Source: a virus. Taken from it: DNA of 25,893 nt. The stretch lies in the UHGV virus genome UHGV-1613375; one strand, written 5' to 3'. Below, one piece after another: positions 774 through 4,973 of this stretch. Each line of letters starts with the position of its first letter. The first letter of the stretch is position 1. Made by a program: the position numbers and the translations under genes. The notes beneath the pieces are model-generated. The model did not search any database. It was not told the DNA's origin and saw only the letters and a program-made list of their open reading frames with translations.

Positions 774-1352
774 ATGATTAATCCTTCTGAAATTGGCAAA
801 ACGGGTGAAATGGTTCGTCTTCGTACTCTGGAAAGTATCTGGGTTCAGGGGAAGCTCCGCATGTGGGGGCGTTGGTCTTATATCAGTGGAGGGACTAGCG
901 GTAACATGTTTAACCAACTGCTTGTATCCAGCAAAATTACCAAAACTGCAATCAACGATGCGCTGCGCCGTATGAAAAAGTCAGGCATTACGAAACCAGA
1001 GCTCGAAGCTTATTTGCGCGAAATACTCAACAGTAAAAACAAAAGTAGTCTGGCGTTTTGCTCGGACGATGAAGGCCTGAAGATTGACGGTGTGATCGCC
1101 TCGGTGCTGATGAATAATGATTACCGTTCTCTATACGGTGTGATTGTTGGCCGGTATTGTCTGCGTAAGAGCAAGTTGCAAATGGCCAATGAGCTTCATA
1201 TTAAACATCCTGACTGGGCGCTCATTACCTGTCGCCGCCGAGTTGACACATGGATAAGTTTGGCCGAATCGCTCCTGTACGCTCCACTATGTGATGCGTT
1301 TGGCACAAATAGCGACAGATTTAAATTGCAAAGTGAGCAAGAAAGTGCTTGA
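774..1352 (+). CDS. Putative late-gene antitermination protein Q
   Basis: 192-aa ORF with GGAG 8 nt upstream of the ATG. Lies between the nin-region protein and the lysis cassette and is followed by a terminator hairpin, the canonical Q / PR' / tR' position. Family assigned by position and general resemblance only. Confidence 0.5.
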   Translation: MINPSEIGKTGEMVRLRTLESIWVQGKLRMWGRWSYISGGTSGNMFNQLLVSSKITKTAINDALRRMKKSGITKPELEAYLREILNSKNKSSLAFCSDDEGLKIDGVIASVLMNNDYRSLYGVIVGRYCLRKSKLQMANELHIKHPDWALITCRRRVDTWISLAESLLYAPLCDAFGTNSDRFKLQSEQESA

Positions 1353-1402
1353 ATTGTGATAAGCTCGGGACGAAAAGCGAACTGAGCAACATAATAGTAA
1401 GA

Positions 1403-1430
1403 ACCCGCCATTGTGCGGGTTTTTGCGTTT
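1403..1430 (+). terminator. Rho-independent terminator (tR'-like) downstream of Q
   Basis: ACCCGC(1403-1408) / GCGGGT(1415-1420), 6-bp stem with 6-nt loop CATTGT, followed by TTTTGCGTTT. Confidence 0.6.
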
Positions 1431-1491
1431 AGGAAAGGCTTGCCAAAAAGAATGATGTTATAGTTTTCGAAAAAAATGCAGGAGAATAAAA

Positions 1492-2883
1492 ATGCTCTGT
1501 GGAGGTCTTTCTTTGCGAGACTTTATGCATAAACTGCATAAAGTTTTGCGACCAACGGGTCCAGTTGTTTCTATGGAACTGTTATTTGGACGTGAAAAAC
1601 ATGTAACCGATCTCGAATTGGCGCTTTATGCTACAGGTCGGCATGCTTTCATTTATGGTGATCGCGGAGTAGGAAAGACATCCTTAGCGCAAACTGTTGC
1701 TTTTAAGCTGCAGGAAGATGCTGAACCTATTTTGGTTGGCTGCGAGAAAGAATCCACTTTTTCAAGTGTCATGAATGACATTATTTTGCGAGGCACACCT
1801 CAGGATAAGAAAATCGATACACAGGGATGGAGCTTTGGCTTAAATGTGGCTGGAATTGGTGGTATCAATGCTGGTCAAAATCAAAAATATAATTATCCAG
1901 AACTGAAAATTGACTCAGTTTCTGCAGCCGTTCGGGCGTTGCAATTTTTAACTAAAGTTCACTCAAAGATTCCTTATATAGTTATCGATGAGTTTGACCA
2001 AATTGACTCTGATGAAGAACGACAAAAGTTTGGATCACTCATTAAACAACTTGGTGATCAGGCGTGTGAAGTAAAATTAATTTTTACGGGGATTGGTGAT
2101 TCTCTCGTTACTTTAATCGGAGGGCATAAATCAAGTGAGCGACAAATACATCAGGTACATCTCGATAGTTTACCATGGAATGGTCGTTTTCAAATAATTG
2201 ATAATGCTTTCGATGAGTTTGGCCTGACTGTCGATGATTCTGTCCGCTATAAAATTGCGGGTCTTAGTGACGGGTTCCCGAACTACATTCATCTTATTTG
2301 TGAAAAAATCCTTTTAACATGTCAAAGCTCAATACGTGAATACAGCTCTGTTGATTACAACCTTTTCATTAAAGGGTTAAATGATGCAATTGATTCAGTC
2401 TCGGAAACTTTAAGGCAAAGTTACACGGATGCAACAGAGGGACGTGATGAGTCATATAAGCATATTCTTTGGGCTATGTCCGATATGGCTGATTTGACCA
2501 GACATAAGACTCATATATCAGAATCGTACGTTAAAATTTGCAAATCGCTTGATGTAACACCTTTAGATAAATCCACGTTTGAGCGAAAGTTCAATGCATT
2601 GAAGAAACCGACATTTGGATGCATCATCATCCCTGCTTTAGGGAATCGTCCATCTTGGTTTCGATTTAGAGAAAACATGCTTCGTGGTTATATTCGAATG
2701 AGAGCGGAGCAGCATGGACTTGAGTTGGACTTCCAAAATTATCGTGTTGCTGGAGAGCATTCTGCTAGGGCTATAGGCAAATACTCTGCTTATAAACCGT
2801 TAACTAATGTTGAAGGACGAGTAGCCAAGCTAAGAGGTGATAACGACTGGCTTGACGACATAAAACCAAATCCTATTAAGTGA
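1492..2883 (+). CDS. Orc1/Cdc6-like (Arch_ATPase/AAA_16-type) P-loop NTPase with probable C-terminal winged-helix region; AT-rich cargo gene of unknown function
   Basis: SD CAGGAG at 1479-1484, 7 nt before the ATG. Walker A GDRGVGKTS (aa 56-64), Walker B YIVIDEFD (aa ~162-169), N-terminal LFGREKH motif and GLSDGFPNYIHL sensor-like motif, as in archaeal-type AAA+ ATPases (recalled family logo). Much more AT-rich than the flanking phage genes (by eye) and bracketed by terminators at 1403-1430 and 2907-2935. Confidence 0.8.
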   Translation: MLCGGLSLRDFMHKLHKVLRPTGPVVSMELLFGREKHVTDLELALYATGRHAFIYGDRGVGKTSLAQTVAFKLQEDAEPILVGCEKESTFSSVMNDIILRGTPQDKKIDTQGWSFGLNVAGIGGINAGQNQKYNYPELKIDSVSAAVRALQFLTKVHSKIPYIVIDEFDQIDSDEERQKFGSLIKQLGDQACEVKLIFTGIGDSLVTLIGGHKSSERQIHQVHLDSLPWNGRFQIIDNAFDEFGLTVDDSVRYKIAGLSDGFPNYIHLICEKILLTCQSSIREYSSVDYNLFIKGLNDAIDSVSETLRQSYTDATEGRDESYKHILWAMSDMADLTRHKTHISESYVKICKSLDVTPLDKSTFERKFNALKKPTFGCIIIPALGNRPSWFRFRENMLRGYIRMRAEQHGLELDFQNYRVAGEHSARAIGKYSAYKPLTNVEGRVAKLRGDNDWLDDIKPNPIK

Positions 2884-2906
2884 CGATTAATGTGAATAAT
2901 TAAATC

Positions 2907-2935
2907 AGGCTGCCTTCGGGTGGCCTTTTTATTTC
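2907..2935 (+). terminator. Rho-independent terminator after the NTPase gene
   Basis: AGGCTGCC(2907-2914) / GGTGGCCT(2919-2926), 8-bp stem including two G-U pairs, UUCG tetraloop, then TTTTTATTT. Confidence 0.7.
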
Positions 2936-2979
2936 CAACACAGCACCCGCAAATAATCGCAGGTGAGAGATAACTACAA

Positions 2980-3315
2980 ATGCCTCATAACCCAAATACT
3001 TGGCCGGACTGGCTGGAGTTGTTCCAGAGCTGGTGGCGTGGAGACACCCCGCTGGGGGCAGTGATTATGTCGATCGTTATGGCTGGTTTGCGTATCGCCT
3101 ATTTTGGCGGAGGTGGTGGCTGGAAGCGAAAAACGCTCGAGATTTTGCTCTGTGGTGCTCTGACGCTGACTTTTGCATCCGCGCTTGAGTATGTCGGATG
3201 GCCTAAATCGCTTTCTGTTGCCATTGGTGGTGGCGTTGGGCTGATCGGTGTTGATGCCATTCGTGGAGCTGCAATGCGAGTAATCGGTAATAAGTTTAGT
3301 GGCTCTAAGGAGTAA
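2980..3315 (+). CDS. Holin, divergent lambda S-like, three predicted transmembrane segments
   Basis: 111 aa immediately upstream of the endolysin. Three hydrophobic segments and a charged C-terminus; the LR..Y.GG....K pattern resembles lambda S (recalled). Confidence 0.65.
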   Translation: MPHNPNTWPDWLELFQSWWRGDTPLGAVIMSIVMAGLRIAYFGGGGGWKRKTLEILLCGALTLTFASALEYVGWPKSLSVAIGGGVGLIGVDAIRGAAMRVIGNKFSGSKE

Positions 3316-3318
3316 TTT

Positions 3319-3795
3319 ATGCAGATACTAAATTCCCAGCGTAAAGCTTTCCTCGATATGGTGGCATGGTCAGAAGGAACGGATAACGGACGGCAGAAAA
3401 CCAGAAATCATGGTTATGACGTCATTGTAGGCGGAGAGCTATTTACTGATTACTCCGATCACCCTCGCAAACTTGTCACGCTAAACCCCAAACTCAAATC
3501 AACAGCCGCCGGGCGTTATCAGCTTCTTTCACGCTGGTGGGATGCTTACCGTAAACAGCTTGGTTTGAAAGACTTCTCCCCCAAAAGCCAGGACGCAGTG
3601 GCATTGCAGCAGATTAAAGAGCGTGGCGCTTTACCGATGATTGATCGCGGTGATATTCGTCAGGCTATCGACCGTTGCAGCAATATCTGGGCTTCACTGC
3701 CGGGGGCTGGTTACGGTCAGTTCGAGCATAAGGCTGACAGCCTGATTGCAAAATTTAAAGAAGCTGGCGGAACGGTCAGAGAGATGGAGGCATGA
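3319..3795 (+). CDS. R: Endolysin, lambda R-type lytic transglycosylase
   Basis: 158 aa, near-identical over most of its length to lambda R as recalled ([47 protein letters not shown]...). Confidence 0.95.
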
Positions 3796-4259
3796 GCAGA
3801 GTCACCGCGATTATCTCCGCTCTGGTTATCTGCATCATCGTCTGCCTGTCATGGTCTGTTAATCATTACCGTGACAACGCCATCACCTATAAAGACCAGC
3901 GCGATAAAAAAGTTAGTGAGCTGCAGCTGGCGACCGCCACCATTACTGACATGCAGCAGCGCCAGCGTGATGCTGATGCACTTGATGCTAAATACACGAA
4001 GGAGTTAGCTGATGCGAAAGCTGAAAATGATGCTCTTCGGCGCAAGCTTGATAATGGTGGTAGGGTGCTCGTCAAAGGCAGATGTCCAGTGCCAGCCACA
4101 ACAAAAGCCTCCGGCACCGCCAGCGTGGGCAATGATGCCACCGTCGAACTCTCTCCAATTGCTGGACGAAACCTTCTCGGTATCAGATCCGGAATTATCA
4201 GAGATCAAGCATCATTGAGAGCGTTACAGGAATATATTGACACTCAGTGTCGGAAGTAA
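3792..4259 (+). CDS. Rz: Inner-membrane spanin Rz (i-spanin)
   Basis: ATGA overlap with the R stop. N-terminus [31 protein letters not shown] matches lambda Rz (recalled); N-terminal TM segment followed by a coiled-coil-like region. Confidence 0.9.
4012..4218 (+). CDS. Rz1: Outer-membrane lipoprotein spanin Rz1 (o-spanin), embedded in Rz in the +1 frame
   Basis: [19 protein letters not shown]: signal peptide with lipobox Cys, then a proline-rich segment ([13 protein letters not shown]), closely resembling lambda Rz1. Fully nested inside Rz. Confidence 0.85.
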
Positions 4260-4364: not shown

Positions 4365-4973
4365 ATGGACTATTTTTACATAGCAACTAAATCGCAAAAT
4401 CCTTGGGTTAAGTATAGGCCTTTGGCAGTAGGAGATTTAGCTAGCACCTCATTCCCAAATCCCTTTTTTAATTATTTCTTAAGTTCAAACATCCCTCCAA
4501 TACCAGTAAATGTTAACGGGCATCTAACTGACTATACGAGAATGCAGTGGCTTTATGGCCTAAAGACAGGGTCACTTACTACTAAGTGTTCTGTACAGGA
4601 TATAGCGGCAGTTGGTCAAGAATTGGCTATGCATTTTTGTAAATATACTAGAGAACTGATTTGGGAAGCCGTTCGAGTTGAATATTACCCAAAAAAGCCT
4701 TCAAGACAGAAATGCTTATGGGTTTCACAAGGTGAAGAAAGTCTTTACTATTGGATTTCGCAGTTGGGATTGGGGGACAATCAGACTGTGTTCAGAGTTG
4801 AGTTGGATGGAGTTATACATGAGGCGAGTGATGAACATTTGATGAATGACGATATACCGTATGATATTGCCTTAGAAAAAGCTCATAAATATTGGAGTGG
4901 TGAAATAGTTGATCCGTTAAAAAAGGAAATACTTTTTGAAGGAAATATGCGGATTCTAGAGCACATTTTATAG
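4365..4973 (+). CDS. Hypothetical protein, AT-rich cargo gene between lysis cassette and HNH/terminase; no recognisable motif
   Basis: 202-aa ORF in an AT-rich island (by eye) with AT-rich flanks, followed by a weak hairpin plus T6. No signal peptide, TM segment or catalytic motif recognised. Confidence 0.6.
   Translation: MDYFYIATKSQNPWVKYRPLAVGDLASTSFPNPFFNYFLSSNIPPIPVNVNGHLTDYTRMQWLYGLKTGSLTTKCSVQDIAAVGQELAMHFCKYTRELIWEAVRVEYYPKKPSRQKCLWVSQGEESLYYWISQLGLGDNQTVFRVELDGVIHEASDEHLMNDDIPYDIALEKAHKYWSGEIVDPLKKEILFEGNMRILEHIL

Follow-up and report, generated by a model that had tools for sequence, protein, structure and literature searches.

The DNA examined here is a window of 25,893 nucleotides, the whole of the stretch analysed from the viral genome UHGV-1613375, and it is part of an Escherichia coli prophage of the SfV-like, lambdoid type whose late gene order can be read from the window. 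A gene for a DUF968/HNH protein (10-759) is followed by the late antiterminator gene Q (774-1352), an open reading frame (ORF) for an ATPase (1492-2883), the holin gene S (2980-3315) and a lysozyme gene (3319-3795); beyond these lie Rz with an embedded Rz1, a DUF2441 ORF (4365-4973), an HNH endonuclease gene, the terminase genes, and the head and contractile-tail genes. Our subject is the ATPase gene and the compact cassette in which it sits, for which a role in superinfection exclusion or anti-phage defence is tentatively proposed. The features of the cassette and of its two flanks are as follows:

774-1352 (+): late antiterminator Q of the DUF1133 type (Pfam DUF1133, 294 bits; Phage_antitermQ, 35.5 bits; phrog_753, 'anti-termination protein Q-like'); left flank, outside the cassette
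1300-1327 (+): weakly supported candidate for a pR'-like late promoter, TTGGCA-16-TAAATT (9/12 matches in a consensus scan), which overlaps Q at its 3' end
1397-1428 (+): intrinsic terminator, tR'-like, shortly after Q; hairpin with a 12-bp stem and a U-run, folding at -18.6 kcal/mol (z = -6.0)
1456-1464 (+): TGtTATAGT, a putative promoter-like element of the extended -10 type, where the mobile cassette begins on the left
1480-1484 (+): Shine-Dalgarno sequence AGGAG, 7 nt before the ATG; GGAG is kept in all copies
1492-2883 (+): ATG-initiated gene for a 463-residue ORC/Cdc6 - ATPase_2 - STAND-like AAA+ nucleoside triphosphatase (NTPase) with a predicted C-terminal winged helix; WP_021562676.1, annotated 'ATP-binding protein' in RefSeq
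1657-1680 (+): Walker A motif GDRGVGKT, residues 56-63; invariant in 40 family members
1975-1992 (+): Walker B motif YIVIDE, residues 162-167, about 104 residues after Walker A; D166 and E167 invariant
2446-2721 (+): predicted winged-helix-type domain, residues ~319-410; secondary structure H-E-H-H-E-E-H in the model
2907-2935 (+): intrinsic terminator at the right cassette edge, hairpin at 2907-2926 with an 8-bp stem and TTCG loop, then a T-run; -13.1 kcal/mol, z = -2.8
2980-3315 (+): lambda-family holin S (Phage_holin_3_1, 95.6 bits); right flank, outside the cassette

A preliminary description of this DNA, made from the letters alone, had singled out the interval between Q and the holin as one 463-residue ORF of foreign composition bracketed by terminators, and measurement bears this out on each count. 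The ORF stands alone between its DUF1133-type and Phage_holin_3_1 neighbours, a hairpin lies on either side, and its G+C content of 39.8% compares with 52.0% in the rest of the window; the estimate of 35-40% made by eye holds at its upper edge, 300-nt windows across the ORF ranging from 37% to 43%. The shift is stronger at third codon positions (GC3), where the ORF has 31.3% and neighbouring genes 48-56%.

The edges of the cassette emerge from an alignment of the flanks of copies that are 85-95% identical in protein and come from different Enterobacteriaceae prophages. Across four flanking contexts these copies have in common only the -10 element, the Shine-Dalgarno sequence, the ORF and the downstream terminator. 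At one locus (L090) the upstream DNA is unrelated, and homology with the other copies starts exactly at the extended -10-like element; on the 3' side homology stops just past the downstream terminator, after which at least three different lysis or late-gene contexts follow. Because the edges of homology coincide with these features, the mobile unit comprises a promoter-like element, a Shine-Dalgarno sequence, one ORF and a terminator. In all of the 85-95% identical copies the pattern TGnTAnAnT stands equally far from the ATG (28-36 nt upstream in the window)—a sigma-70 scan missed it, and it was found only through comparison of the copies—while the downstream terminator stem carries compensatory changes between copies (GCTGCC/GGCGGC vs GCCACC/GGTGGC). 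The Q-proximal terminator is kept in loci with the same Q type, and since it is missing from the shared cassette in L090 it belongs to the phage backbone. Promoter-like sites near the candidate pR' are no commoner in the sigma-70 scan than in shuffled sequence; the assignment of 1300-1327 as pR'-like follows from its position in front of the terminator.

The slot between Q and S is itself variable. In E. coli prophages with an 81%-identical Q (L182 and L183) it may be empty, as in strain 2017C-4173W12, or, as in strain ET5, filled by an unrelated 198-residue ORF without a Pfam match. In phage SfV (L173, Q-S interval, locus 943-2521) the cargo is likewise set between two terminators ahead of S and consists of a 64-residue ORF and an orphan N6/N4 DNA methylase (orf48), and in Stx phages the slot is occupied by stx. 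Because the slot is empty or differently filled in related phages, the ATPase gene is dispensable for phage propagation. Judged by sequence comparison, the interval is a classic moron—a horizontally acquired, self-contained cassette with its own promoter-like element—and it combines that element and a terminator with atypical G+C and a presence/absence pattern among related phages. Like other lambdoid Q-S cargo it lies downstream of a Q-controlled terminator and upstream of S, is terminator-bracketed and foreign in composition, and can be dispensed with. It differs from such cargo in encoding neither a toxin (stx) nor a methylase (SfV) and in having its own promoter-like element, where expression of stx depends largely on pR'. 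Structured RNA or transfer RNA (tRNA) cargo of the kind found in Stx phages was also considered and rejected, no Rfam or ARAGORN match being found anywhere in the window.

Within E. coli, carriage is narrow. The segment of the window from 1300 to 3000 is present in 56 of 5426 complete genomes and is 100% identical in every carrier listed, and the carriers represent essentially one prophage lineage. In one of them, Ecol_AZ146, the prophage adjoins tRNA-Ser and mtfA and neighbours the yersiniabactin island. The source is human for most of the listed carriers, and at least one genome with the same Q allele is labelled O25b:H4-ST131.

Turning to the protein, the motifs quoted in the preliminary description (F-G-R-E-K, Walker A, Walker B and GLSDGFPNYIHL) are all present, and an alignment of 40 family sequences, the basis of the conservation given here, shows no variation at their key residues. 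LFGREK occupies residues 31-36 (LLFGREK, 30-36), with R34 invariant. The sensor-like GLSDGFPNYIHL lies at residues 257-268; its G261, P263 and H267 are invariant and fall where a lid helix begins, which is where Cdc6 has its 'GDAR' sensor 2 and STAND proteins have their 'GxP' motif. H212, S214 and R217 are also invariant; R217 follows the polar sensor-1 position T199 by 18 residues, as would be expected of the arginine finger in an AAA+ protein, and is a candidate for that role. In the winged helix, W327, R337, Y346, R386, E394, R398 and G399 are invariant or nearly so.

An AlphaFold2 model built from the same alignment is confident (predicted local distance difference test, 83; predicted template modelling score, 0.77). 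It begins with an N-terminal helix, continues with a five-stranded AAA+ core, a helical lid at residues 229-315 and a winged-helix-like domain at 319-410, and ends in a mostly disordered tail with one helix. Its best structural neighbours are 2qen and 2fna, of the ATPase_2 family, followed in descending order by archaeal Orc2 and Cdc6/Orc1 (15.6-16.3), TnsC (15.7) and RFC, MuB and ORC subunits (~14); further neighbours are a group at 13.1, made up of the BrxC N-terminus, ZAR1 and CED-4, and then MalT (12.5), and fold matches also include Apaf-1 and NRC. The winged-helix type anticipated earlier for the C-terminal half is supported by the secondary structure of the model, by full-length Foldseek alignments to Cdc6/Orc1 (402-427 columns with 1fnn and 2qby) and by a weak Cdc6_C match (13.4 bits, E = 0.078). 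Of all parts of the protein this domain alone is positively charged (+6 net, against a family median of +3), core and lid being acidic, and it is from this charge that a nucleic-acid-sensing role, the label given earlier, may be inferred. A profile search of the PDB found no sequence relative beyond the P-loop (matches being limited to that of ArsA, Clp, Lon and Cdc6), so a solved homologue by sequence can be set aside, and in the viral structure library BFVD no match was more specific than clamp loaders, RFC and generic AAA+ proteins. In the disordered, variable C-terminal tail, a (Y/F)xPLTxxE motif followed by a basic stretch (residues ~438-450; window ~2803-2841) is kept among gammaproteobacterial members and may be a docking peptide.

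Family models place the protein on a border. It passes the Pfam cut-offs of AAA_16 (39.8 bits; cut-off 32.6) and AAA_22 (30.1; 27) and falls below those of ATPase_2 (24.7; 33.2), nSTAND1 (22.4; 27.1), NACHT (18.5; 26.7) and nSTAND3 (17.7; 27.2). Some relatives do exceed these or allied thresholds: P0072 (41.1 bits) and P0048 (34.6) for ATPase_2, gp30 of Mycobacterium phage Kevin1 (41.8), P0109 (31.3) and P0048 (29.2) for nSTAND1, and P0109 (30.1) and P0072 (29.2) for nSTAND6. The full-length match is to PHROG 6841, a family without an assigned function. From its sequence the protein is most aptly called an AAA+ switch of the ORC/Cdc6 - ATPase_2 type that borders on STAND and belongs to neither named family; it lies outside both STAND and Orc1/Cdc6 proper because two STAND hallmarks are missing and the Orc1/Cdc6 equivalog models fail by a wide distance.

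Comparison with each class in turn clarifies this placement. Both the Walker A pattern GxxxxGK[TS] and the Walker B pattern hhhhDE of AAA+ proteins are present. The archaeal ATPase_2 proteins (PF01637; Pyrococcus abyssi PABY2304, 2qen, and Sulfolobus Sso1545, 2fna) match in fold, although identity to 2qen is only 16% and the present family differs in being bacterial and carried on mobile elements; we know of no function for PF01637 proteins, so this match conveys a fold and not a mechanism. The earlier description as an Orc1/Cdc6-like AAA+ protein thus stands for the fold neighbours and for AAA_16, and fails at the level of the initiator family itself (1fnn, 2qby, 1w5s, 2v1u): TIGR02928 scores 35.6 bits against a cut-off of 181.3 and covers residues 29-115 only, and the PRK00411-type model NF001625 scores 15.6 bits against 501, well short of a full-length match. 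Where Orc1/Cdc6 has its initiator-specific motif, the window protein has a disordered, poorly conserved insert of 30-40 residues within the AAA+ core (106-134 in the model). The ATPase gene also lies in the late region and not in the replication module, in a slot that related phages leave empty, and repeats resembling an origin were not noticed, no search having been aimed at them.

The STAND proteins (Avs, bNACHT, nSTAND1/nSTAND6) share with the window protein a core of nucleotide-binding domain (NBD), helical domain and winged helix, an hhGRExE motif and a GxP-like SDGFP (259-263), and like them it is borne on mobile elements; its gene sometimes adjoins defence genes. The hhGRExE motif is common to STAND and Orc1/Cdc6 and so does not separate the two. 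Unlike STAND proteins, the window protein has neither effector domain nor repeat sensor, with no further Pfam domain in its 463 residues. In the family alignment residues 319-410 contain no histidine that reaches 80% conservation, hence there is no 'MHD' equivalent, and the sensor-1 region reads IFTG, without an arginine. At the AAA+ finger position there is an invariant arginine. STAND defence proteins are characteristically large (PMC12803255), whereas members of the window family have about 450 residues.

Two further comparisons concern defence more directly. BstA (PMC8585504) is likewise a prophage accessory gene product, a single protein with a predicted DNA-binding module and no catalytic effector, although it has no relation to the window protein in sequence or fold. 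The central defence locus of cluster N phages is akin in another way, as its variable region holds a full-length homologue, Kevin1 gp30. The preliminary description had recognised in the protein neither a nuclease, TIR, SIR2 or toxin domain nor the NTPase of a named defence system. Both statements hold: no such domain was found in the window protein or in the best 150 family representatives, and the best matches in PADLOC-DB 2.0 (mad8, 18.9 bits; PDC-S01; IetA) all fall within residues 46-79, while in NCBIfam 20 (June 2026) DS41_1_antiphage reaches 15.8 bits against a cut-off of 370, again at the level of the P-loop. On these P-loop-only matches a named defence system is rejected, with the proviso that the libraries may miss later or unlisted systems (e.g. 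Brenes & Laub 2025). We found no paper that names WP_021562676 or ties AAA_16, PF01637 or Cdc6-like ATPases to phage defence, the E. coli prophage defence screen of Brenes & Laub 2025, to which Lee et al. refer for 'prophage-encoded STANDs', lying outside the comparison.

A replication initiator or a packaging ATPase, the housekeeping or propagation identities against which the cargo proposal had been set, can be excluded. Replication genes of the prophage itself (DnaT-like and P) lie 6-8 kb upstream of the ATPase ORF, and gene position, the empty slot in relatives and the sub-threshold scores speak against an initiator or helicase loader; both the small and the large terminase subunits are encoded downstream, which disposes of a packaging role. 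A Tn7/Mu-type transposition ATPase was also rejected, for although the fold resembles TnsC and MuB there is no associated transposase in the window and none conserved at other loci. The evidence so far points to a family without a name, a STAND/ORC-like NTPase carried as cargo by prophages and other mobile elements and unusual in having neither an effector nor a sensor extension.

The family is large. With E <= 1e-30 an exhaustive profile search recovered 951 clusters (50% identity), a number that rises to 2663 at 1e-10. Among the best 150 of the 951 clusters, nearly all representatives have 410-470 residues or are shorter fragments, and the sole long relative (P0212, 576 residues) has no extra Pfam domain; a fused effector in distant relatives was sought among these 150 and none was found. 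Relatives occur at 346 loci of GTDB species representatives, spanning Gamma-, Beta- and Alphaproteobacteria and Acidobacteriota, in 88 IMG/VR viral contigs and in two cultured actinobacteriophages. Selection on the family is strongly purifying: among 92-95% identical copies the ratio of nonsynonymous to synonymous substitution rates (dN/dS) is 0.016-0.038, synonymous sites being mostly saturated.

The preliminary description had likened the interval to the classic cargo hotspot of lambdoid phages, and homologues do recur there. Down to 31% identity they are found directly after Q-like antiterminators of three PHROG families (753, 79 and 304), with holins or endolysins downstream. Other prophage settings vary more widely: in Vibrio parahaemolyticus the homologue follows DUF968 and precedes a variable cargo block and the lysis genes, another adjoins the integrase at a prophage end, and in Edwardsiella ictaluri it lies between cI/HipA_2-DUF3037 and int. 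In the Edwardsiella prophage (L160-L162, 5570-7122) the cI-like repressor is directly followed by a HipA_2 kinase-like gene paired with DUF3037, and the ATPase homologue comes after this pair, which may be another two-gene accessory or defence module.

Outside prophages, the homologue sits in an integrative mobilisable element in Pectobacterium, beside Gabija (OLD-TOPRIM + UvrD) in a Pseudomonas island, near AbiJ and a resolvase in one locus and in a resolvase islet after glmM in another. It is also found on 80 plasmid records, 63 of them from Yersinia. For example, the Y. pestis CO92 plasmid pMT1/pFra (L178; NC_003134.1, 66212-67603) encodes a full-length homologue of 44% identity, WP_002211751.1 ('AAA family ATPase'), directly downstream of parA-parB, with a RelE/Phd pair, a recombinase, a DNA methylase and ArdA nearby. 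Unlike these mobile-element settings, the homologue of Nitrogeniibacter aestuarii (L167, 6735-9365) starts 30 nt after rtcB in an RtcR-controlled RNA-repair locus.

Two temperate, cultured actinobacteriophages have distant full-length homologues, at 25-26% identity, in their central variable regions. Kevin1 gp30 (L179, 4932-6200; 25%) lies in that of the cluster N mycobacteriophages, between the lysis cassette and the integrase and beside a HicB-like gene, and gp34 of Gordonia phage Cashline (L180) lies between tail genes and the integrase. The Kevin1 genome announcement calls gp30 an 'orpham' and suggests that further new genomes of cluster N may yield candidate genes for prophage-mediated defence (PMC6544188).

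A census of the 130 immediate neighbours of 67 dereplicated genomic loci contains 5 resolvases, 3 integrases, 2 Mrr/type IV restriction endonucleases, NsnA, PtuB (Septu), SoFic, PD-T4-2_A and type II restriction-modification genes. All-against-all clustering of four genes on each side at 158 loci revealed no conserved partner gene, the largest neighbour families being phage backbone genes and resolvases.

Taken on its genomic context, the ATPase may be a superinfection-exclusion or anti-phage protein serving its resident mobile element, a reading that is better supported than its rivals and to which we would assign a probability of roughly 45%. Residence in accessory slots of all kinds of mobile element, some with defence-gene neighbours, makes it plausible. 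In a lysogen the extended -10 element would provide low-level expression, and after induction Q read-through of both terminators would provide strong expression. The product would act as an effector-less AAA+ switch built of a nucleotide-binding core, a lid and a basic winged helix. ATP binding, through the Walker motifs, the polar sensor 1 and the candidate finger R217, would drive oligomerisation on a target recognised by the winged helix and the C-terminal tail, either foreign DNA or a phage protein bound to DNA. As the protein has no enzymatic domain, it would interfere by occupying or sequestering its target, for example by blocking replication, transcription or packaging of the invader, and would neither cleave anything nor deplete NAD+. 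Whether the family amounts to a new class of minimal, effector-less NOD/ORC-like immune proteins—some 450 residues of NBD, lid and winged helix, assembling in an ATP-driven manner on invading DNA or on a phage nucleoprotein complex and protecting, by occupancy, the cells that bear the mobile element—is a bolder proposition, and one that we consider doubtful.

Several observations weigh against a defensive function. No homology to a validated defence protein was found, the PADLOC and NCBIfam matches being confined to the P-loop and far below cut-off, and we know of no validated precedent among STAND or ORC-like defence proteins for an effector-less NTPase that acts by occupancy. A dN/dS of 0.016-0.038 is unlike the fast-diversifying sensors of many immune proteins. 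The defence genes among the neighbours are suggestive, and as a count made without a random-locus background they are not a measured enrichment; housekeeping genes (L4, GyrB, LepA, RNR) appear in the same census. The recurrent position as first gene after Q would suit a lytic-cycle function equally well. Finally, the -10 element is a putative promoter and the winged helix a putative DNA-binding domain.

Should the protein prove defensive, it would be a widespread addition to the anti-phage repertoire, with about 950 clusters in several phyla and on every type of mobile element. Such a member would be unusual as well, a bare nucleotide-binding and oligomerisation core of the ORC/STAND kind with neither effector nor repeat sensor, raising the questions of how an ATP switch alone stops a phage and of an ancestral, pre-effector state of NLR-like immunity. 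In practical terms, resistance to therapeutic phages could be affected in the hosts of carriers as diverse as E. coli prophages (including at least one in a genome labelled ST131), Y. pestis pMT1 and cluster N phages. A regulator or a counter-defence decoy would still account for the recurrence of a strongly conserved gene in first place in the late operon.

The first of these, a DNA-binding AAA+ switch that maintains or regulates the mobile element in the manner of ORC/Cdc6, DnaA-type regulators, TnsC/MuB/IstB or MalT, appears rather unlikely. It could control the transcription of host or phage genes (lysogenic conversion), regulate replication or partition, or take part in choosing recombination targets or in target immunity. 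The basic winged helix and the ORC/TnsC/MalT-like fold would fit such a switch, as would the pMT1 homologue directly downstream of parA-parB and the standing of resolvases and integrases as the commonest annotated neighbours; very strong purifying selection suits a conserved cellular or DNA target. Yet no transposase, recombinase, par or rep partner is conserved across loci, the prophage has its own replication module elsewhere, and the empty slot of related phages means that the gene is not needed for propagation. Nor does the distance from Orc1/Cdc6 proper (TIGR02928, 35.6 bits against 181.3) favour it, and the elements that house the same protein (phages, plasmids, chromosomal islets) have unrelated maintenance systems.

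A distinctly unlikely possibility is that the ATPase is the sensor half of a split system, recognising a trigger and then recruiting or activating a nuclease, protease or membrane protein encoded by the host or elsewhere in the element. The lack of an effector domain in the family members checked (the best 150) would be accounted for, the PLTxxE motif (~440-447) of the disordered tail could be the docking peptide, and recruitment of a host factor has a precedent in Avs7 with EF-Tu (PMC12803255). Against this, no partner co-occurs in the neighbourhoods, and with a family spanning Gamma-, Beta- and Alphaproteobacteria, Acidobacteriota and actinobacteriophages the partner would need to be universally conserved; the tail motif, for its part, is kept only among gammaproteobacterial members.

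It is improbable that the protein serves counter-defence. In that case it would be a NOD-only decoy, the first late product, which co-assembles or competes with host STAND/NLR-like sensors of late phage proteins (Avs, bNACHT) and poisons their oligomerisation, or which sequesters some other host immune factor. Its architecture is indeed the NBD-lid-winged-helix core of STAND/ORC without sensor or effector. Q-modified polymerase reads through terminators in lambdoid late control and would here read through both of the bracketing ones, and the first place after Q, in three Q families, would imply expression just before terminase, portal and capsid, all of which are known Avs triggers (PMC12803255). 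The cassette nevertheless has its own promoter-like element and terminator, typical of morons expressed in the lysogen, and a late anti-Avs role would make little sense for homologues in islets, in the Gabija-adjacent Pseudomonas island or on large plasmids. Furthermore, the invariant Walker B glutamate and the candidate arginine finger argue for a working ATPase and not an inert decoy, and likeness to Avs and NACHT modules in sequence extends to the P-loop only. A hitch-hiking or decaying passenger without benefit to host or phage, suggested by the 56 E. coli carriers of essentially one lineage and by an AT-rich composition that could bring H-NS silencing, is very improbable given the dN/dS of 0.016-0.038 with saturated dS, the invariance of all nucleotide-binding motifs, an intact frame of uniform length in about 950 clusters and regulatory elements that travel with the ORF.

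Two further genes of the window lie in or beyond the lysis region. A 68-residue ORF in the +1 frame (4012-4218, +), with a lipoprotein signal and lipobox, is embedded in Rz (3792-4259), as expected of a putative Rz1 o-spanin gene nested in that of the Rz i-spanin. Between Rz and the HNH and terminase genes lies a second AT-rich cargo ORF (4365-4973, +; 202 residues, G+C 37.8%, GC3 32.5%). Its product matches DUF2441 (PF10386) and phrog_9842, which has no assigned function, and has no match in PADLOC or NCBIfam; the gene looks like another moron in the same prophage.

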